61,815 nucleotides of DNA from NCBI GenBank assembly GCA_013816135.1, contig JACDEV010000003.1, forward strand, positions 1 to 61,815, read 5' to 3'. Position numbers and translations under genes: made by a program. The stretch comes from Patescibacteria group bacterium (lineage in GTDB: Bacteria > Patescibacteriota > Minisyncoccia > Phycocordibacterales > DATDWN01). Below the pieces are notes generated by a model that was not told the origin of the DNA, did not search any database, and was given only the letters and a program-made list of their open reading frames with translations. Positions 4,068-59,751 of the stretch are shown here, piece after piece (position 1 is the first letter of the stretch; every line of letters begins with the position of its first letter).

Positions 4068-5741
4068 ATGGCTTATTTACTTTTTCCAGGACGACATCTA
4101 TTGACCACAGCTTTTCAATCAGATTACCTTTGGAGCATACTTCGACTTCCTATAAACAAACTTGAACTGTTAGGAGAATACAAAGGTGATGGTGAAGATA
4201 AAATCGATACCATAATTTTTGCAGTCACTTCCGCCAACCAAGAGAATTCACGTTATAACCCGATCCCGTTTCATATGAGATCTATTGAACTTGATAGATT
4301 CTCAGAAGATTATAGAAATGCATTAGGAGTAAAAACCGAAATAGTTGCAATACCGCACTTTCATCCAAACGAACATTTCGGAGAGTATATCCTAAAAGAG
4401 TACTCTGAAAAAACAGAAAATCAGACAGTTCTTACCCCAAAAAATACTATAGTTCTTTGTTCAACTCTTGCTTTAATACAGCAATATCAGAAACTAGGAT
4501 TTGCTGTCCTTACATCCGAATATGATGTTAAAGAAGAAAAACTAAAATCAAAAACCCCGATTGACTACCTAAGACTGTTCGCATCAAGCGAAGGTGAATG
4601 GGAAATGAATGCTGAATTTACAACTGGAGTTTCCAAGGCAACTCAAAAATTCTGGAAAGATTTTCCTTCTGTTCCAACAAAGATCCTTCGTCTCTGGAAA
4701 GACCCACTGCTTACAGAAGAAGGTAGTCTGACCAAAACAAGAAACTATTCAACATACGCCCAAGGAATGGGCCATACAGCACTTCTTGATGCAAAATATA
4801 AAGACATAAATCAATCTGTAAAGACTGGAAAGATAGTGGACGAGGGCTGTGCTGACGGTGCCCTGATGACACTTCTTGCAAAAGATTTTTCTGACTCAGA
4901 TATTATAGGAATTGAGATCACTAGCGAGTTTACTGCTAGATGTTTAGAACGGCAAAGAGCAGGAGAGTTTGGTGGGACATTTGTACATTTTCATCAGAGG
5001 AACTTGATGGATAAGATTTTTGAAGATAACTCAATTGATACAACTATTTGTAATTCAACAACCCATGAGATATGGTCATACGGTGACAGAGAAGAGTCCT
5101 TGTTTAAGTATCTAAAGCTTAAGTTTGATCAGCTGTCAAAAAATGGAAGATTGATTATTCGCGATGTGGTGGGTCCAGAAGATAAGGAAAAAATAGTTTA
5201 TCTGGAATTGAATGATAGAGACGGTTCAAATGATAATATTTTTAAAATCTGTTCCAACCAGGATGAATTACGCGATCACCTATCAGGATTATCTACCTCC
5301 GCTCGGTTTATTCGTTTCACAGAAGATTATTTGAAAGATATGAGAGAAGGTGAAAGAAGAGGGGATGAAACTAAAATAAAATTTGAAAAAACAATAATAG
5401 ACAATAAGAACTATTTCGTCCTAAGGCTCAAAGATGCAATGGAGTTTTTGACTAAGAAAGATTATGTAGATAATTGGCAAAGCGAATTAAATGAAGAGTT
5501 CGCATTCTGGAGTTTTAGTGAGTGGAAAGATATTTTAAGAAAAATAGGTTTTCATATAATTGAGAACCCAAATGAACTTGAAAGATCGTCTCGAGCATTC
5601 GGTATTTCATGGATAGTAGATAATAGACTGAAGGGTAAAGGAACTATATATACAAAGGACGGTAACTCATTAAATGTTTTACCATATCCGCCTACAAATA
5701 TGGTTATAATAGCTACAAAAGAAGGAACATTTGACAATTAA
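4068..5741 (+). CDS. two-domain protein: N-terminal nucleotidyltransferase-like region fused to a class I SAM-dependent methyltransferase
   Basis: The SAM motif I-like IVDEGCADGALM lies mid-protein. The N-terminal LLFPGRHLLTTAFQ resembles a degenerate GRFxPxHxGH of NMNAT-type enzymes. It lies directly upstream of pnuC-nadR. Confidence 0.55.
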   Translation: MAYLLFPGRHLLTTAFQSDYLWSILRLPINKLELLGEYKGDGEDKIDTIIFAVTSANQENSRYNPIPFHMRSIELDRFSEDYRNALGVKTEIVAIPHFHPNEHFGEYILKEYSEKTENQTVLTPKNTIVLCSTLALIQQYQKLGFAVLTSEYDVKEEKLKSKTPIDYLRLFASSEGEWEMNAEFTTGVSKATQKFWKDFPSVPTKILRLWKDPLLTEEGSLTKTRNYSTYAQGMGHTALLDAKYKDINQSVKTGKIVDEGCADGALMTLLAKDFSDSDIIGIEITSEFTARCLERQRAGEFGGTFVHFHQRNLMDKIFEDNSIDTTICNSTTHEIWSYGDREESLFKYLKLKFDQLSKNGRLIIRDVVGPEDKEKIVYLELNDRDGSNDNIFKICSNQDELRDHLSGLSTSARFIRFTEDYLKDMREGERRGDETKIKFEKTIIDNKNYFVLRLKDAMEFLTKKDYVDNWQSELNEEFAFWSFSEWKDILRKIGFHIIENPNELERSSRAFGISWIVDNRLKGKGTIYTKDGNSLNVLPYPPTNMVIIATKEGTFDN

Positions 5742-5789
5742 GTATTAAGTGTATAATATACAATATATACCTTTAATATTTATAAAGTC

Positions 5790-6452
5790 ATGAAAAAAAT
5801 TATATATTGGTTCGCTGTAGTTGTGTCAGTAGTCTTGATCTATGCTTCCTGGAAAGGGATTATTCCTTTTGGGCTAACTGAGATGCTGGGATTTGTAACA
5901 GGGGGTTGGACCGTTTGGCTTACTGTAAAGGAGAACATTTGGAATTGGCCAATTGGTATTTTGAATTCAATTTTTTTCCTAATACTTTTTCTAAAAGCTA
6001 GATTATTTGCAGATTCAGGTTTGCAAGTTGTTTATGTGGTATTTGGTTTTTTGGGGTGGTATTGGTGGCTATATGGAGGAAAAGATAAGACAGAATTGCC
6101 TGTTCAAAATGTAACAAAGCGCACAGCATTTATCTTGGCCTTCCTTACTCTTGCTTTCACTTGGATTATGACTATATATTTGAGAAAGATATCAGACGTG
6201 TCTCCATTTCTAGATGCTTTGACAACTGTTCTAAGTTTGGTTGCACAGTATCTTCTTACAAAAAAATACATAGAGAATTGGTATATATGGATAACAGCAG
6301 ATGTTATATATATTTATCTATATGCATACAAGAATCTATATCTGACTTCAATCTTGTATTTTATTTTCCTATGTATGTGTATTCAAGGAGTTCTGGAATG
6401 GAAGAGATCGCAAGATAAGATGATTTTCGTAGAGCCTGCAATAATAAAATAA
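5790..6452 (+). CDS. pnuC: nicotinamide riboside transporter PnuC
   Basis: 220-aa polytopic membrane protein with Trp-rich motifs (NIWNWPIGILN, GWYWW). Immediately followed by nadR. Confidence 0.75.
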   Translation: MKKIIYWFAVVVSVVLIYASWKGIIPFGLTEMLGFVTGGWTVWLTVKENIWNWPIGILNSIFFLILFLKARLFADSGLQVVYVVFGFLGWYWWLYGGKDKTELPVQNVTKRTAFILAFLTLAFTWIMTIYLRKISDVSPFLDALTTVLSLVAQYLLTKKYIENWYIWITADVIYIYLYAYKNLYLTSILYFIFLCMCIQGVLEWKRSQDKMIFVEPAIIK

Positions 6453-11949: not shown

Positions 11950-12024
11950 GCCGTTGTAGTTCAGTGGTAGAATACTGTCTTGGTAAGACAGTGGTCGTGG
12001 GTCCGATTCCCACCAACGGCTCCA
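11950..12024 (+). tRNA. tRNA-Thr (GGU), CCA encoded
   Basis: Acceptor GCCGTTG/CAACGGC, anticodon loop TTGGTAA, T arm GTGGG-TCCGATT-CCCAC (C at position 55). Confidence 0.9.
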
Positions 12025-12171
12025 AGAAAAAATATGTTTTTTCTTCTGGGAATCGGACGACGGAGCGGGCACACAGCGAGCTCGCTGGGTCGCGAGTCGG
12101 TGCCCAGACTAAAATGTTTTGACGAAAACATTTTAAGTCGAGGGAGATTTCCATCAACAGCTCAAAGAAAA
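12025..12171 (+). repeat. tRNA-linked GC-rich structured element, copy A
   Basis: In order: A/T hairpin; reverse complement of the tRNA-Thr T-loop/stem; GACGGAGCG; hairpin; CGCGAGTCGG; long hairpin; 22/26-nt copy of the tRNA 3' end plus trailer. Confidence 0.6.
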
Positions 12172-18159: not shown

Positions 18160-18286
18160 GAAACGTAGCCGTCAATGTACTAGCTGTACATCTCCGACTC
18201 CATTACTTATTTTATAGGCGACCTTGTCTCAGATCTGAAAGTTTTAATTTGTAATAATGGCATTTTTCGGGTATTCTGTTATCTAT

Positions 18287-18357
18287 TGCCAGATCGTCTA
18301 ACGGTAGGACTCCGCCCTCTGGAGGCGGGTATCTTGGTTCGAGTCCAAGTCTGGCAG
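18287..18357 (+). tRNA. tRNA-Gln (CUG)
   Basis: Acceptor TGCCAGA/TCTGGCA (U1-A72), anticodon loop CTCTGGA, T arm CTTGG-TTCGAGT-CCAAG. No encoded CCA. Confidence 0.9.
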
Positions 18358-18540
18358 CAAAATAGCGAAGCTATTTTCCTGTCCAGAAGCAAAGCGTAGC
18401 TTTGCGCTTGGACTCGAACGACGGAGCGATTCGTGTTTTAACAAAAACACGACGCGAGTCGGCGCCTAGACTTTTTCCGAGCGACGGCAAGGAAAAAAGT
18501 CGGAGGAGAGAGTGTACTCACGATCCAAGTCTGGCAGCCA
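18358..18540 (+). repeat. tRNA-linked GC-rich structured element, copy B (ends in a second tRNA-Gln 3' end with CCA)
   Basis: A/T hairpin; TGTCCAGA; hairpin; CTTGG+ACTCGAA (inverted T-loop); GACGGAGCG; hairpin; CGCGAGTCGG; hairpin with GAGCGACGGC loop; CCAAG TCTGGCA G CCA. Confidence 0.6.
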
Positions 18541-19143
18541 ATGAAAAATAAAATTATTAAATTAGCTTCCTTAATATTGGATTTCGGAAAGATTGAAAGG
18601 CAGACTTTTCATCAAGATGGTTTGACATCTGAGTCTGATACCGATCACACAGTCATGCTTGGTGTTATAAGCTGTTCATTGGCTAGTAAATTATATTTGG
18701 ATTTAGATGTTGGTTTGGTTGCACAATTTGCTTTTGTTCATGATTTGGTTGAGGTCCATGCAGGAGACACACCAACTCTTAAAGGAATAACTGATGAATT
18801 TTTAGAATCAAAAGAAAAAAGAGAATTAAGGGCTTTAGAAAAAATAAAGTATGAATTTTCAGAGGATTTTTTTTGGATACATAAAACAATAGAAAAATAT
18901 GAAAAATTAGATACAAAGGAAGCTAGATTTATAAAAACTCTTGATAAGATTTTACCCAAAATTACGGTTATCTTAAACAATGCCAAAGGTTTAAATGATA
19001 ATAAACTTGCTACAAGGACTGAAGCGAAAGAAACTTTTGATAAACAAAGAATAAAATTATCCAAATTAGCAAATGATATGCCGGAAGTTATGGATTTATG
19101 GGAGTATTTTGTAGAAGAAGAACTAAAACTTATAAAAGATTAA
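18541..19143 (+). CDS. HD-domain phosphohydrolase (YfbR-like 5'-nucleotidase type)
   Basis: DTDHTVM ... FVHDLVEVHAGDTP gives the H...HD...D metal-binding pattern. Confidence 0.7.
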   Translation: MKNKIIKLASLILDFGKIERQTFHQDGLTSESDTDHTVMLGVISCSLASKLYLDLDVGLVAQFAFVHDLVEVHAGDTPTLKGITDEFLESKEKRELRALEKIKYEFSEDFFWIHKTIEKYEKLDTKEARFIKTLDKILPKITVILNNAKGLNDNKLATRTEAKETFDKQRIKLSKLANDMPEVMDLWEYFVEEELKLIKD

Positions 19144-22100
19144 TGTCATCATCTCAAAAACCAGTATTTTATGATCCAACCAATCAGCGAGCAAAAAAGT
19201 TACGCTTTATTTCCCTTGTCTTGGGGTTTACTCTTACTGTTCTTCTTATTATTTTTCTTATAAGTATATTATTTGTTCCTAGTTTTACCCCTCTTCCTTT
19301 AGCTTCCTTTATAAAAGAGAGCAGACAAAAACCTCCTCAACAATTATCCATTTCTGCAAGCAAAGCCAAAATAATCGAAGAATTAGAAATAAAAAGAGCA
19401 GAAGAGCAAAAGAAATATGCTTTAGAACAAGAACGTCTACAGAATAGTAAAAAACCTCTGTCACCACTCGTCATAGGGTTTATGGTTAATTGGGATGACA
19501 ATAGTTTCGAGTCTCTCAAACAAAACTTTGAAAAAATAGATATCTTGTCGCCAGAATGGCTACATATCAAAGATGGAACGGGAAATATAACTTTGGACAA
19601 CGAAGGCTTACAAAAGGAAGTCACTGAGTATGTTAGAAGTCGTAATTCGAATCTGGCAATTATTCCACTTGTAAACAATTTTGGATGGCAAAAATCTATT
19701 TTGCATGAAGTATTACGTAAGAATTCCACTAGAGCACACCTAATATCGGAGCTACTGAAATATATTAAAGATAGAAAATATGCCGGAATCAGTATAGACT
19801 TTGAAAATATAGATGACATAGACCAGAGAAATTTCAGTCAATTTATAGAGGAAATTTCTTCTACTTTTCATGCAGAAAATCTTCAAGTTTCAGTTAATGT
19901 TATTCCAGATAATCCCGCGTATGAATTCAAACGACTTTCTCTTGCAGCAGACCATGTCATATTAATGATGTATGACGAAAATATTGCAACAGATCCTGCT
20001 GGACCGATTTCTGGAATCGATTGGTATTCAGAGCTTTTAACAAATCTGTCTAAAGAAATTCCTTCAAACAAAATGATTATTGCCATGGGAGCGTACTCCA
20101 ATGATTGGCAAGGGAATAATAAAGCAGAGCAAAAGTCATTTGAAGATGCCTTGCTTACTGCTACAGATTCCGAAGGTGTGATTAGCTTAAATCCAATTTC
20201 ACTCTCCTCTACATACCAGTATTATGATGATACAGATAAACTCCATACAGTTTGGATGCAGGACAGTGTTAGTCTTTTCAACCAGTACATGATTGCGAGC
20301 AGATTTAGTCCCGCAGGTGTAGCACTATGGCGACTTGGAGGAGAAGATAAAAGTATTTGGAATTTTATTGGAAATTCTTTCGACACTACATACACACCTG
20401 ATTCTGTTCAGGCTTTGTTAGGTGATGTGACTTATTCTTATACTTTGGATTATGAGAGTGACGGAGAAATATTAAAAGTGACGGGTTTGCCTCATACCGG
20501 CAAAAGAATTGTCACATTTAATCCTGTTACTGGACTCATTTCCAAAGAAAATTTTAATGACTATCCGAAACCCTACGTTATTACTCAGTATGGTAAAAGT
20601 GATCGCAAAATCGCTCTGACATTTGACGATGGACCTGATGACTCTTACACTTCCAAAATACTTGATATCTTGAAAAATAAAAATGCCCCAGCCACTTTTT
20701 TTTTGGTAGGGGAGAATATTGGAAGTTTTCCATCTCTTGTCCGTCGTGAATATGAAGAAGGTCACGAGATTGGTAATCATACTTTCTCACATCCAAATAT
20801 TTCGGAAATTTCGCAAACTCAGCTTCGTTTAGAACTGTCTGTTACAGAACGCATGATTGAAAGCAGTACCGGTCACCAATCTCTTTTATTCCGTGCGCCT
20901 TTTGCTGTTGATTCAGAACCCACTACTCCGGATCAGATGATCCCAGTGGCAGAAGTGAGTCGTTTAGGTTACCTGATGGTAGGAATGCATATAGACCCAT
21001 CAGACTGGGAAAGTCCTCCGTCTGGCCAAATTATCAGTCGGGTGTTGAGCCAAATAGAAAGCGGACAAGGAAATGTAGTATTGCTTCACGATGGAGGTGG
21101 AGAAAGAGAGCAAACAGTTTTAGCTTTACCCAAACTAATTGATACTCTCCGGGCCAAAGGCTACAACCTTGTGTTAGTGTCGGATCTACTTGGTAAGAGC
21201 CGGGATGAAATAATGCCAGCAATCCAGGTTAGCGATAAATTTGAGAAAGTCAGTAACACTGCAAGTTTTAGTATTGCTAGAGTTATTGTGTATATATTGC
21301 ATCTTCTTTTTCTTTTCGGTTTAATTCTCGGAATTATTCGGTTCTTTATGGTGGGCATTCTTGCTTTGATAGAATACCTGAAAGAACGCAGGAAAACATT
21401 TACTCCCGGATTTTTCCCTTCCATGGCGGTTATCATTTCTGCTTTTAACGAAGAAAAAGTTATTAATCAAACAATCTCAACTCTACTTTCTTCCACATAT
21501 CCAAATTTTGAAATTATTGTTGTAGATGACGGTTCGACAGATAAAACTTTGGAGAAAGTTAAAGAAACATTTGGAGAAAATAATCGTGTTCAGATATATC
21601 ATCAGGAAAATTCTGGCAAATCCACAGCCCTTAACTTTGGTATAGCGAAAACTTCTGCGGATATTGTAGTAAGTTTAGATGCTGATACTATATTTCCCCC
21701 GGTAGCACTTTCCAAACTAGCACGCCATTTTGAAGATCCGAATATTGGTGCGGTAGCAGGTAATGCAAAAGTGGGAAATAGGAATAATCTTTTGACTAAA
21801 TTTCAGGCTCTTGAATATATTATTAGCCAGAATCTAGATAAGAGAGCTTTTAGTGTGCTAGATGCAATTACAGTAGTGCCAGGGGCAGTAGGAGCTTGGC
21901 GAAGGAAGGCTCTTTTGGAAGCAGGAGGGTTTAAGAGTGATACTTTGGCTGAAGATTCAGACCTAACGATTTCTATAAGAAAAATCGGCTACACTATAAC
22001 CTATGAAGATGAGGCAATAGGAATTACTGAAGCTCCAGAAACTGTTAAGAATTTAATTAAACAGCGTTTTCGATGGATGTATGGAACATTGCAAGTAGGT

Positions 22101-22538
22101 TGGAAGCATATAGGAGCCTTACTTAATCCAAAATACGGCTCACTCGGACTTATTGCATTACCAAACATTATTATTTTTCAATTAATATTTCCAATCGTTT
22201 CTCCGTTAATGGATTTGACCGTTATTGTTTCCATTTTCGCAACACTCTTTACCTACAATCAGCACCCAGAAAGTTTTTCTGCAGGCTCGCTTCAACATAT
22301 ACTTTATTTTTATCTTTTATTTTTAATTATTGAAATACTGGGTGCTGGAATAGCTTTTCTTTTTGAGCGAAAAGAAGATCCGCGTCTCTTGGTTTGGCTA
22401 ATCATACAACGTTTCTACTATCGTCAGCTGATGTATTATATTGTTTTGAAATCACTCTTTACTTCGCTTAGGGGGATTGCAGTCGGTTGGAATAAATTTG
22501 ATCGCACGGGTACTGTGAAAATAGATAATTTAAAATAA
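19143..22538 (+). CDS. fusion protein: GH18-like domain + CE4 polysaccharide deacetylase + processive GT2 glycosyltransferase (PgaB/PgaC-like)
   Basis: GISIDFEN (GH18 DxE-like); TFDDGPDD and HTFSHP (NodB/CE4); VVDDGSTD, LDAD, QRFRWMYG (GT2 QxxRW); C-terminal TM helices. The ATG at 19143 (TAATG overlap with the HD gene stop) is preferred over 19098. Confidence 0.8.
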   Translation: MSSSQKPVFYDPTNQRAKKLRFISLVLGFTLTVLLIIFLISILFVPSFTPLPLASFIKESRQKPPQQLSISASKAKIIEELEIKRAEEQKKYALEQERLQNSKKPLSPLVIGFMVNWDDNSFESLKQNFEKIDILSPEWLHIKDGTGNITLDNEGLQKEVTEYVRSRNSNLAIIPLVNNFGWQKSILHEVLRKNSTRAHLISELLKYIKDRKYAGISIDFENIDDIDQRNFSQFIEEISSTFHAENLQVSVNVIPDNPAYEFKRLSLAADHVILMMYDENIATDPAGPISGIDWYSELLTNLSKEIPSNKMIIAMGAYSNDWQGNNKAEQKSFEDALLTATDSEGVISLNPISLSSTYQYYDDTDKLHTVWMQDSVSLFNQYMIASRFSPAGVALWRLGGEDKSIWNFIGNSFDTTYTPDSVQALLGDVTYSYTLDYESDGEILKVTGLPHTGKRIVTFNPVTGLISKENFNDYPKPYVITQYGKSDRKIALTFDDGPDDSYTSKILDILKNKNAPATFFLVGENIGSFPSLVRREYEEGHEIGNHTFSHPNISEISQTQLRLELSVTERMIESSTGHQSLLFRAPFAVDSEPTTPDQMIPVAEVSRLGYLMVGMHIDPSDWESPPSGQIISRVLSQIESGQGNVVLLHDGGGEREQTVLALPKLIDTLRAKGYNLVLVSDLLGKSRDEIMPAIQVSDKFEKVSNTASFSIARVIVYILHLLFLFGLILGIIRFFMVGILALIEYLKERRKTFTPGFFPSMAVIISAFNEEKVINQTISTLLSSTYPNFEIIVVDDGSTDKTLEKVKETFGENNRVQIYHQENSGKSTALNFGIAKTSADIVVSLDADTIFPPVALSKLARHFEDPNIGAVAGNAKVGNRNNLLTKFQALEYIISQNLDKRAFSVLDAITVVPGAVGAWRRKALLEAGGFKSDTLAEDSDLTISIRKIGYTITYEDEAIGITEAPETVKNLIKQRFRWMYGTLQVGWKHIGALLNPKYGSLGLIALPNIIIFQLIFPIVSPLMDLTVIVSIFATLFTYNQHPESFSAGSLQHILYFYLLFLIIEILGAGIAFLFERKEDPRLLVWLIIQRFYYRQLMYYIVLKSLFTSLRGIAVGWNKFDRTGTVKIDNLK

Positions 22539-54202: not shown

Positions 54203-54706
54203 ATGAACAACATACCTGAAGTAAAAGATAAAGAATTGCATCGTATTGCCACAACAGTTCTAATTTATAAACCAGACTTTACATATCTCATTACTAGACG
54301 AGCACTTCATAAAAAAATGATGCCAGGTAAGTGGACTATTCCTGGTGGAGGTTTAAATATCGATGATTATATACATCTTCCTCCACATTCTGAAGGTGCA
54401 CCACAATGGTATGGAGCTTTGGAAAACAGTATGAGACGAGAGATAAAAGAAGAAGTAGATTTAGAAATTGGAAAATGTGAAATGCTAACTGACCTGACTT
54501 TTATTCGTCCAGATGGAATACCTGTGATTTGCTTCAGTTACTTTACGCCATTTATTTCAGGTGAAGTTAAGTTTGACCAAGATACTGAAGGAGATACTAT
54601 CGATGCAAAATGGGTGACCTTGGAAGAAGCTTCGAGGTATGATTTGATAGATGGGATTTGGGATGAGATAAAAGATGTGGAAAATATTTTAAAGTCACGG
54701 AAGTAA
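54203..54706 (+). CDS. NUDIX hydrolase
   Basis: GGGLNIDD ... MRREIKEEVDLEI Nudix box. Confidence 0.8.
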   Translation: MNNIPEVKDKELHRIATTVLIYKPDFTYLITRRALHKKMMPGKWTIPGGGLNIDDYIHLPPHSEGAPQWYGALENSMRREIKEEVDLEIGKCEMLTDLTFIRPDGIPVICFSYFTPFISGEVKFDQDTEGDTIDAKWVTLEEASRYDLIDGIWDEIKDVENILKSRK

Positions 54707-54722
54707 TTCTATAATTTTAATT

Positions 54723-54860
54723 GGAGAGTTCGCATAGCGGTCTGGTGTTGAAATGCGATGAGCATTTCAAAGACGGAGCATGGCGATGCGAGTCGGGGTC
54801 GAGGAAATTTTTTCCAAAAAATTATCCGTGACCGAGCTTGGAAAGCGGGTGCTATAATGG
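54723..54860 (+). pseudogene. disrupted copy of tRNA-Ser(GGA) carrying structured element copy C
   Basis: 54723-54747 matches the 5' 25 nt of the intact tRNA (1 mismatch). An 88-nt insert (54748-54835) carries GACGGAGC...GCGAGTCGG. Then comes the anticodon arm CGAGCTTGGAAAGCGGGT. No T arm or 3' acceptor strand. Confidence 0.6.
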
Positions 54861-54869
54861 TTTTTAATT

Positions 54870-54956
54870 GGAGAGTTCGCATAGCGGTCTAGTGCGCTCG
54901 CTTGGAAAGCGGGTAGGGAAGCAATTCCCTCAGGAGTTCGAATCTCCTACTCTCCG
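54870..54956 (+). tRNA. tRNA-Ser (GGA)
   Basis: Acceptor GGAGAGT/ACTCTCC, anticodon loop TTGGAAA, long variable arm, T arm AGGAG-TTCGAAT-CTCCT. TATAAT lies 11 nt upstream. No encoded CCA. Confidence 0.9.
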
Positions 54957-55127
54957 CAAACAAATTGTTTGCAATTTGTTCGTGAGAGTAAGTAAGGTCA
55001 TGTTATGACCTTACGTGGAGATTCGAAAGACGGAGCGGGTACTAGTCGAGCACGACTGGTCGCGAGTCCGGGTAGGGAAAATTTTCGAGCGACGGCCATA
55101 AAATTATTCCTGACCGAATTTCTCCGC
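54957..55127 (+). repeat. tRNA-linked GC-rich structured element, copy D
   Basis: A/T hairpin; GAGAGT; hairpin; GGAG+ATTCGAA (inverted T-loop of tRNA-Ser); GACGGAGCG; hairpin; CGCGAGTCCG; hairpin with CGAGCGACGGCC loop; CGAATTTCTCC GC. Confidence 0.6.
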
Positions 55128-55159
55128 TATAACTTTTAGTTGTGTTAAAATAAGAATAT

Positions 55160-59677: not shown

Positions 59678-59680
59678 TTG

Positions 59681-59751
59681 TGCGGGTAAGGGTAATCGAA
59701 ACCCTGCCTTATCCTTGGGAAGGACACGTTCTACCACTGAACCATACCCGC
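59681..59751 (-). tRNA. tRNA-Gly (CCC)
   Basis: The reverse complement folds: acceptor GCGGGTA/TACCCGC, anticodon loop TTCCCAA, T arm AGGGT-TTCGATT-ACCCT. Confidence 0.9.

Follow-up and report, generated by a model that had tools for sequence, protein, structure and literature searches.

An apparently uncatalogued structured element with arms matching the adjacent tRNA gene in candidate-phyla-radiation bacteria

Integrative elements that carry tyrosine integrases use the region from the T-loop to the 3′ end of tRNA and tmRNA genes as their target, leaving a direct repeat of the 3′ end, regenerating the tRNA and occupying sites in tandem. Theta ribozymes, which are minimal ribozymes of the hepatitis delta virus (HDV) type with the HDV double-pseudoknot, lie within ±5 nt of phage tRNAs in gut Caudoviricetes and have been proposed to act on the tRNA 3′ trailer (PMC10879173). 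The locus described here belongs to a window of 61,815 nt from the Patescibacteria group bacterium GCA_013816135.1 (contig JACDEV010000003.1; all positions are window coordinates unless a locus is named). Positions 18359–18540 of this window, downstream of tRNA-Gln(CTG), are one copy of a widespread, apparently uncatalogued structured element of candidate phyla radiation (CPR) bacteria, ~110–250 nt long.

The element is rated as lying outside the known kinds, sharing single features with several of them, and any function given to it here is a proposal. It has the target region, the regenerated tRNA, the tandem occupancy and the 3′-end repeat of integrative elements; a repeat running from near C56 to the tRNA end or beyond is present in 57 of 94 copies, against 1 of 94 in the null. 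Unlike those elements, the unit of ~110–250 nt is without integrase or cargo, and it has an antisense copy of its target, a folded single-strand core and arms matched to at least 34 tRNAs. Clustering of the open reading frames (ORFs) of ~120 loci recovered no integrase inside an insert of this length. With theta ribozymes it shares a structured RNA directly 3′ of tRNA genes, but it starts 22–273 nt downstream, forms a three-way junction, has tRNA-complementary arms and is chromosomal in CPR bacteria.

CTX-φ and IMEX, whose attP of folded single-stranded DNA (ssDNA) is acted on at dif by the host XerCD, resemble the element in having no recombinase of their own, in forming tandem arrays, in having inverted segments ~100 nt apart that can fold into a target-mimicking duplex (a likeness of predicted structure only), and in a post-insertion layout of inverted arm, spacer and hybrid site; the strand-specific folding of the element would fit this type as well. 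Here, however, the target is a tRNA gene and not dif, the arms vary with each target, and the spacer is a conserved three-way junction; we know of no ssDNA form or phage helper for the element. Repeats resembling miniature inverted-repeat transposable elements (MITEs), such as Correia/NEMIS, the Rickettsia palindromic elements and REP/BIME, are likewise small, multi-copy, non-coding and intergenic, with terminal inverted repeats and a foldable centre. The ‘terminal repeats’ of the present element, in contrast, are copies of the neighbouring tRNA, its location is confined to tRNA and tmRNA 3′ flanks in one orientation, and its covariation is of the RNA type; MITE-type element-borne terminal inverted repeats and a short duplication of fixed length were not found among the loci, the arms differing per locus and the duplication varying.

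Guide RNAs (IS110 bridge RNA, TnpB/IscB ωRNA and group II intron EBS) also combine a conserved scaffold with target-complementary variable segments and have their gene beside the target, whereas the element has no attached recombinase or nuclease gene, its ~20-nt complement is mirrored by a sense copy and it has a target duplication of 15–45 nt. Neither a linked ORF family nor an Rfam match connected it with IS110 bridge RNA or TnpB ωRNA. Finally, tRNA-like processing signals (plant mitochondrial t-elements, mascRNA and the tmRNA domain) share with copies of the window type an acceptor-plus-T minihelix without an anticodon arm; in the element, unlike these signals, a ~100-nt core stands in place of the T-loop, there is no conserved CCA, and the helix is a perfect antisense/sense copy of the neighbouring tRNA.

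The element at tRNA-Gln and its wider family

Across the family the parts follow one another on the tRNA strand in the order tRNA, terminator-like hairpin, anti arm, A or C, P2, P3, an optional module and the direct repeat. At tRNA-Gln they are as follows.

18287–18358, + strand: tRNA-Gln(CTG), intact, by ARAGORN (Rfam tRNA 18287–18357, 56 bits)
18359–18377, + strand: terminator-like hairpin AAAATAGC-GAA-GCTATTTT (segment F) between tRNA-Gln and the element, from sequence and folds
18380–18387, + strand: anti-acceptor segment TGTCCAGA, which complements the acceptor 3′ strand TCTGGCA
18389–18405, + strand: side hairpin module (A)GCAAAGC-GTA-GCTTTGC(G), from sequence, splitting the anti arm in two
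18407–18419, + strand: anti-T segment CTTGG-ACTCGAA-C, from sequence the reverse complement of tRNA positions 53–65 (GTTCGAGTCCAAG)
18420–18460, + strand: P2, made up of GAC-GGA-GCG, variable hairpin and CGC-GA-GTC, an invariant core helix with a GGA/GA internal loop
18461–18506, + strand: P3 hairpin GG-CGCCTAGAC...GTCGGAGG, with the cap GA-GC-GACG-GC-AA (conserved GACG tetraloop module)
18508–18522, + strand: optional module AGAGTGTACTCACGA, a small hairpin of GAAAGYGTACTCRCG type between P3 and the direct repeat
18521–18540, + strand: direct repeat of the tRNA-Gln 3′ end, CGA + TCCAAGTCTGGCAGC (exact 15-mer) + CA, forming helix P1 with the anti arm

An earlier note on this DNA had set out several of these parts, and all of its coordinates were confirmed: the tRNA-Gln gene, the paired arms, in which CTTGG (18407–18411, followed by ACTCGAA at 18412–18418) has CCAAG at 18525–18529 as its partner, the side hairpin, the core motifs GACGGAGCG (18420–18428) and CGCGAGTCGG (18453–18462), the G-CCA at 18537–18540 and the ATG of the next gene at 18541. 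Its exact 15-nt repeat, TCCAAGTCTGGCAGC, was found at exactly two places in the window, 18344–18358 and 18524–18538, where 0.02 occurrences are expected. The sequence copied in both arms is that of tRNA-Gln positions 54–74; TGTCCAGA complements TCTGGCA of the gene (18351–18357) and of the direct repeat (18530–18536) with one extra T, giving 7 bp and one bulged U. In predicted folds the terminator-like hairpin is the tip of a long hairpin made by the tRNA-Gln 3′ end and the anti arm; its sequence is locus-specific, equivalent hairpins differing at other loci. The side hairpin module recurs at unrelated tRNAs in other genomes (for example L029, L042, L054 and L028, L numbers denoting loci), and the optional AGAGTGTACTCACGA-type module is shared with L033, L064, L075, L088, L102 and L103. 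The hairpin loop of the window copy reads GAGCGACGGCAA. The 182-nt stretch has a more stable fold than all 200 shuffles (z = −4.7), and the closing helix proposed in the earlier note is present in the centroid structure.

The family was collected with the pattern TYGRAN-GACGGAGCG-N6-36-CGCGAGTC, for which ~8 chance matches are expected in the GTDB genome collection. At least 120 loci were found in that collection and at least 120 in metagenome contigs by the same pattern, and the family counts rest on the matches listed from each. The genome matches listed are nearly all from Patescibacteria metagenome-assembled genomes (MAGs), among them Parcubacteria/Paceibacterota and Lloyd-, Kaiser-, Taylor-, Zambryski-, Nomura-, Adler-, Yonath- and Campbellbacteria, together with many third-party annotation (TPA) MAGs labelled Saccharibacteria. 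In 94 of the 126 genome matches listed a same-strand tRNA ends 22–273 nt upstream (median 63), the others being mostly block edges or GC-rich chance matches; for 84 of the 122 metagenome matches listed, the 700 nt upstream include a tRNA or tmRNA on the same strand, with the remainder mostly at contig or block edges. At least 34 isoacceptors are occupied in the genome set, and 30 plus four tmRNAs in the metagenome set, and in every occupied isoacceptor type the arms are matched to the own tRNA. Hand inspection located tmRNA (ssrA) 3′ ends, reading ..GCACGCGGGTTCGATTCCCGCCATCTCCA, upstream of the element at L092 and L036. Bystander tRNAs in the retrieved loci carry a copy in 18 of 76 cases (24%), and some units stand alone, with no tRNA (L188 and L075 among them). 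At the gene ends discriminator-C-A-A is commoner than CCA (CAA in 25 of 55, CCA in 10 of 55), followed by A-tract/T-tract hairpins.

The core measures ~70–110 nt and has three helices, P1, P2 and P3, forming a three-way junction with strands of AAA, GG and 0–2 nt. P2 has the consensus GAC-GGA-GCG, variable hairpin, CGC-GA-GUC; P3 occurs in two main subtypes, GGGGUCGNG...CNUGACC and GGUGCCYAGAC...GUCGAGGGAGA; and the optional small module before the direct repeat reads GAAAGYGUACUCRCG. One hairpin cap is a GACG tetraloop on 2–4 G-C pairs beside tandem G·A and the other an AGCA-type loop, and these exchange places in short variants. P2 and P3 types also recombine, as in L032 and L049, which have a common P2 and different P3. 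Pairing in P2 is 99% conserved, divergent members having compensatory changes. In P3 all 10 pairs show covariation, with 95% of cells paired, and in unselected hits the figure for P1 is 92% of cells. Among 96 metagenome hits outside the training set of the covariance model, 95.2% of cells were paired, compared with 71.2% after shuffling and 35–51% after sliding. In the same hits double-sided changes numbered 414 versus 116, with all P1 and P3 pairs covarying and P2 also compensating, although these counts lean towards the model structure because the alignment was fitted to that model. Comparison of the two strands gives the better fold to the tRNA-sense strand in 77 of 80 copies for P2 and 43 of 45 for P3; this is the folding strand, and the core is a real folded single strand.

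Rfam 15 returned tRNAs only, over the whole window at the gathering threshold and over 18250–18600 at E ≤ 10, and no description of the element was found in the literature. Small self-cleaving ribozymes (hammerhead, HDV-like/theta, twister, twister-sister, pistol and hatchet) had no Rfam 15 match in 18250–18600 at E ≤ 10, and mapping of the junction onto hammerhead or HDV gave a poor fit, the joining strands not being CUGAUGA / GAA. Group I and II introns had no Rfam match, and more than 200–400 nt would be expected of them against the ~70–110 nt of the core. No T-box or other known riboswitch matched in Rfam, and the genes downstream of the loci are unrelated to one another. As a tRNA or pseudo-tRNA (Rfam RF00005, ARAGORN) only 18287–18357 scores, with nothing in 18359–18540 at E ≤ 10, and ARAGORN found no tmRNA in the window.

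The 2.9 million viral contigs of IMG/VR gave chance matches only, in GC-rich contigs, so that an origin as phage attP is not supported. One viral chance match of the first core pattern (L006 4927–5023) is an antisense phage tRNA-Gly T-arm plus acceptor (GACGGAGCGGGAGTCGAACCCGCGAGTCGG), from which the two core motifs are seen to resemble faintly an antisense tRNA 3′ end. An explanation as a functionless by-product would see attachment scars of phages or islands, or template-switch (inverted triplication) products, at the palindromes of the T-loop (TTCGAA) and terminator. Such an origin would account for the direct–inverted–direct layout of the tRNA 3′ segment bounded by these two palindromes, and tRNA and tmRNA 3′ ends are classic integration sites; it does not account for a ~100-nt core with invariant motifs and heavy covariation common to hundreds of loci, and it is further opposed by the lack of real viral matches, of cargo or far repeats except in L062, and of inverted repeats at core-free tRNAs. 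It is extremely improbable, being largely refuted by the conservation of the core.

Correspondence between the arms and the adjacent gene

The anti arm is the Watson–Crick reverse complement of tRNA positions 54 to ~74 and the gene flank. It covers the T-loop and the T-stem 3′ strand, and extends over the acceptor 3′ strand in ~40% of copies; a conserved side hairpin (AGCAAAG...CUUUGCG or a relative) often breaks it. Complementarity of the two bases preceding TCGAA to cognate T-loop positions 59–60 is seen in 85 of 94 copies (shuffled partners: mean 23, maximum 39) and in 70 of 80 in an independent metagenome set (null 18). T-stem complementarity averages 3.9/5 with the own tRNA versus 2.5/5 with other tRNAs, and an anti-acceptor matching at 6/7 or better is found in 39 of 94 copies, with 6.5 expected. 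The rare C55 is tracked by G at the matching arm position in 7 of 7 tRNAs, though the repeat stops short of position 55. The corresponding T-loop, TCCGATT, with C in place of the near-universal T/ψ at 55, belongs to several Parcubacteria-type tRNAs (Thr, His and Met), as at window positions 11950–12024 (tRNA-Thr(GGT)) and in L039, L067, L074, L087, L090 and L119, and the arm mirrors the variant. Complementarity of the arm to the adjacent tRNA itself, like the existence of a large family, was missed by the earlier note.

Opposite the U of tRNA G·U pairs, the arm has A and not G at 32 of 33 sites in the acceptor stem and 18 of 38 in the T stem, versus 6 that are 5′-strand-like (some rows being mis-parsed), and at 29 versus 2 in the metagenome set; these sites include G3·U70 of tRNA-Ala. 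Since A stands opposite U and the T-loop, including C55, is present as its reverse complement, the arm is an antisense copy of the 3′ strand and not a decayed 5′ half. This rejects the earlier suggestion of an intron-like insertion in a truncated tRNA copy. A decayed tandem tRNA is ruled out by A opposite U and by the C55-tracking G in the arm.

For the 4 nt that precede the anti-acceptor, a 4/4 match to the gene flank was found in 15 of 33 and 8 of 42 copies, and one to N73+CCA in 0 of 33 and 0 of 42; at some loci the palindrome is perfect over 20–28 bp. Because complementarity enters the flank and never matches added CCA, the arm copies the gene or primary transcript, not the mature tRNA, and a retroelement primer-binding site is rejected on the same ground. 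Of the sites that distinguish tRNA from repeat, 68 have an arm base pairing with the tRNA alone, 24 one that pairs with either and 2 one that pairs with the repeat alone. Mismatches in the arm show no wobble preference (A>G 8.7%, C>T 10%, G>A 5%, T>C 8%), so that the outer arms appear to decay nearly neutrally. Overall, the gene, and neither mature tRNA nor the 5′ half of the tRNA, looks to have been the template for the arms.

The direct repeat starts most often at C56 (26 of 55) and ends 0–3 nt past the discriminator, although 9 repeats go on into the flank for 6 nt or longer (the longest for 20 nt or more), sometimes through the terminator; the length of the target duplication is variable, at 15–45 nt. 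A long continuous anti arm tends to go with a poor repeat, and a good repeat with a short or split arm (ρ = −0.24). Where the gene is without CCA, the repeat is followed by CCA in 6 of 45 cases only. The terminal CCA singled out in the earlier note is therefore not a family feature, and that of the window copy is probably fortuitous; the tRNA-Gln gene itself encodes no CCA, as C-AAAA directly follows it.

The earlier note had also considered an expressed tRNA-like RNA, in which P1 would mimic the cognate acceptor/T-stem minihelix with the core in place of the T-loop, and RNase P, RNase Z and the CCA-adding enzyme would excise the RNA from a co-transcript, possibly to tag, aminoacylate or circularise it. 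Copies with a split arm and full repeat, that of the window included, do have a 7-bp acceptor-like helix stacked on a 5-bp T-like helix, a side hairpin replacing the D and anticodon arms, and a retained discriminator base, and the folding strand is the tRNA strand. The scarcity of CCA speaks against it, as do the ~60% of copies with no recognisable anti-acceptor and the many repeats without the acceptor part, which leave many copies short of one acceptor half. A mimic would not need a strict Watson–Crick arm reaching the T-loop and gene flank, and Rfam gives no tRNA or tmRNA signal. Mimicry is possible for copies holding both halves, such as the window’s; it does not fit the family as a whole, for which it is very unlikely.

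Mobility, host function and related proposals

The reading favoured here, tentatively, is that the family is a non-autonomous, selfish mobile element that inserts at the T-loop-to-3′-end of tRNA and tmRNA genes via a folded single strand. A unit of tRNA 3′ segment, hairpin, anti arm and core would insert in this part of the gene, regenerating the tRNA and displacing the old 3′ end downstream, where it would become the direct repeat; integrative elements at tRNA genes leave the same layout. The intermediate would be a folded single strand, either RNA or ssDNA, in which P1 may rebuild a copy of the target as a duplex or tRNA-like minihelix, and the conserved core would act as a handle for a putative trans-acting host or helper enzyme. 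Of the earlier note's readings, that of a small element integrated at the T-loop, a classic integrase sublocation, survives in part: insertion there is the best fit to the repeat from ~C56, the tmRNA targets, the arrays and the patchiness, but no integrase accompanies the element in the ~120 loci clustered.

We infer mobility from arrays, partial units, patchy occupancy, contig breaks, cores shared between different arms, the presence of different subtypes at the syntenic tRNA-Thr locus and an island in L062. Tandem arrays are common (for example L013, L028, L044, L068, L087 and L091), with partial and decayed units as well, and genomes differ in whether a particular isoacceptor is occupied. 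Many metagenome contigs (L137–L256) end ~100 nt from the element, with matches at positions such as 99–146, which suggests that the element and tRNA repeats break short-read CPR assemblies. Two tRNA-Ser genes of one MAG (L008 and L123) share one core sequence between TCGAAA and GACCGAAT (100% identity) but differ in arms and side hairpins, and cores 92–97% identical lie at different tRNAs in different genomes.

The island of ~950 nt (L062 4881–5950) carries cargo after tRNA-Ser(TGA) and is bounded by two units and a perfect repeat. Its order is tRNA-Ser, canonical unit, decayed repeat, a lipoprotein-like ORF of 143 aa (5361–5791), an opposite-strand unit (5835–5919) and the repeat (5926–5944), a perfect copy of the tRNA 3′ end that carries the terminator. 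The core of the opposite-strand unit, AGACCGGAGGC..GCCGAGGU, belongs to a divergent subfamily also present in L044 and L014. Beyond this island, a distant-repeat search for cargo-carrying or autonomous versions gave tandem units only.

Several points weigh against mobility. ORF clustering of the ~120 loci found no protein family common to more than 9 of them, the commonest being housekeeping and nothing mobile, and no linked integrase, recombinase, transposase or reverse transcriptase. The loci compared did not include an empty site to set against a filled one, we know of no mechanism that makes an inverted and a direct target copy together, and a simple cross-over model leaves the change of arm on a new tRNA unexplained. 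Identical cores with different arms could equally have come about by gene conversion among functional RNA copies, and host function would also fit both the frequent pairing of P1 in unselected hits and the intact core of copy D at tRNA-Ser(GGA), described below, despite its decayed repeat. As to the chemistry, a restriction-like cut-and-ligate step at the palindromic TTCGAA fits the left junction and not the right (GAC|CGA), and simple snap-back extension from the terminator fits continuous palindromes (L064, L051) and not one-sided bulges (L053); neither model fits all junctions.

Comparison of tRNA-Gln loci in related genomes was advised in the earlier note. Other assemblies with the same downstream HD protein are base-for-base identical to the window, and the orthologues sought via this HD-hydrolase led to closest relatives that are at most 74% identical and not syntenic, so that no empty site was obtained. 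The tRNA-Thr locus of the window is syntenic with five retrieved loci at ~72% nucleotide identity, all of them occupied, with different subtypes, in a comparison biased by the choice of loci for having the element.

Non-mobile, host-functional RNA coupled to its tRNA is the main rival explanation of the same data, though a somewhat unlikely one. The anti arm would pair either with the tRNA 3′ half, as a long hairpin blocking the cloverleaf, or with the downstream repeat, as P1 closing a three-way-junction ‘aptamer’; the core would be a ligand- or protein-sensing switch, or a processing signal, gating the maturation or stability of that tRNA, and the cores would have been made uniform by gene conversion. 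The strongly conserved, covarying core and P1, a typical switching helix, are in keeping with such a role. The minimum-free-energy co-fold of tRNA-Gln and the element swaps strands (tRNA 54–73 with the anti arm, the 5′ acceptor strand with the repeat), and on this strand-swapped optimum of the predicted co-transcript the two conformers would be nearly iso-energetic. The preference of the arm for tRNA over repeat where they differ (68 versus 2), the occupancy of the syntenic tRNA-Thr locus in six species (loci chosen for having the element) and the absence of a linked mobility gene point the same way.

For a regulator, by contrast, arrays, degenerate units, tRNA-less copies (L188, L075) and the inverted unit of L062 are odd; only about a quarter to half of tRNAs are occupied, and a given isoacceptor is occupied or empty depending on the genome. 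The mismatches behave as if the arms were not under selection for RNA pairing, a long continuous arm anticorrelates with a good repeat, and expression would need read-through of the terminator-like hairpin between tRNA and element.

It is also conceivable, though unlikely, that the core is itself active as an RNA device whose arms are programmable. It would swap strands with the cognate (pre-)tRNA, the anti arm taking the tRNA 3′ half and the repeat the 5′ strands as the predicted co-transcript fold has it, and either gate maturation or cleave and ligate in the T-loop. In the gating form, binding of a ligand or protein to the three-way junction might control the maturation of that one tRNA; in the catalytic form, the element might be a protein-less, tRNA-homing mobile RNA of intron-like or viroid-like kind, with guides re-templated for each target.

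If the family is as it appears, CPR genomes carry perhaps 10–20 copies each (a rough estimate), with specificity segments that are exact antisense/sense copies of individual tRNA 3′ ends and no dedicated protein. As a mobile element it would show selfish DNA or RNA exploiting tRNA genes in a novel manner, by a target-mimicking fold, templated guides and host enzymes; as a host RNA it would add a new layer of tRNA-specific control in minimal-genome organisms. Of practical interest are the breakage of metagenome assemblies at tRNA genes and a naturally programmable scaffold-plus-guide architecture.

Further copies and neighbouring genes in the window

The two core motifs occur four times in the window, always on the + strand and beside a tRNA. 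A covariance model trained on 67 relatives and run over the window finds exactly four copies, at 96, 93, 78 and 51 bits, with the next match at 12 bits. The copy at tRNA-Gln, described in the earlier note as the best preserved, is the only one of the four with an intact acceptor-plus-T direct repeat, but by the covariance model it ranks third, its 78 bits comparing with 96 (55016–55124) and 93 (12046–12154). The other three copies are as follows.

12025–12165, + strand: copy A, 3′ of tRNA-Thr(GGT) at 11950–12024 (covariance model 93 bits, 12046–12154)
54720–54869, + strand: copy C, a degenerate core (54759–54855) inside a partial tRNA-Ser duplicate (covariance model 51 bits)
54958–55130, + strand: copy D, 3′ of tRNA-Ser(GGA) at 54870–54957 (covariance model 96 bits, 55016–55124)

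Copy A has an anti-T arm only (GGGAATCGGA, which fits the unusual TCCGATT T-loop of tRNA-Thr); its P3 is of type II and its direct repeat has diverged. In copy D the anti arm is split by a side hairpin, P3 is of type I and the direct repeat is decayed. The partial tRNA-Ser duplicate around copy C comprises the 5′ 25 nt, the anticodon arm and a promoter-like TATAAT region: promoter-like CTATAAT..TTTTAATT plus tRNA-Ser(GGA) positions 1–25 are present twice (54712–54747 and 54852–54894), and the anticodon arm (GCTTGGAAAGCGGGT) is repeated at 54836–54850, with the degenerate element core between the duplicate fragments (54706–54869).

Three of the seven tRNAs in the window are occupied; the remaining four have ordinary flanks, with no inverted repeat and no core. 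Among the element-free tRNAs, tRNA-Met (472–545) has the unusual T-arm GGGATCGTAACCC, and tRNA-Gly(CCC) (59680–59751) has GGGTTTCGATTACCC.

The gene downstream of the tRNA-Gln copy encodes an HD-domain (YfbR-like) hydrolase, whose start codon lies 2 nt past the repeat of the tRNA 3′ end (18538–18543). This start is probably real, as homologues are of equal length. With the element removed, the HD gene would start 2 nt from tRNA-Gln, with no space for a ribosome-binding site. The end of the HD gene is overlapped by an ORF of 1146 aa (19098–22538), the counterpart of which (1131 aa in the identical assemblies) has glycosyl-hydrolase 18, polysaccharide-deacetylase and chitin-synthase-like glycosyltransferase domains, a fusion that is unusual for a CPR genome.

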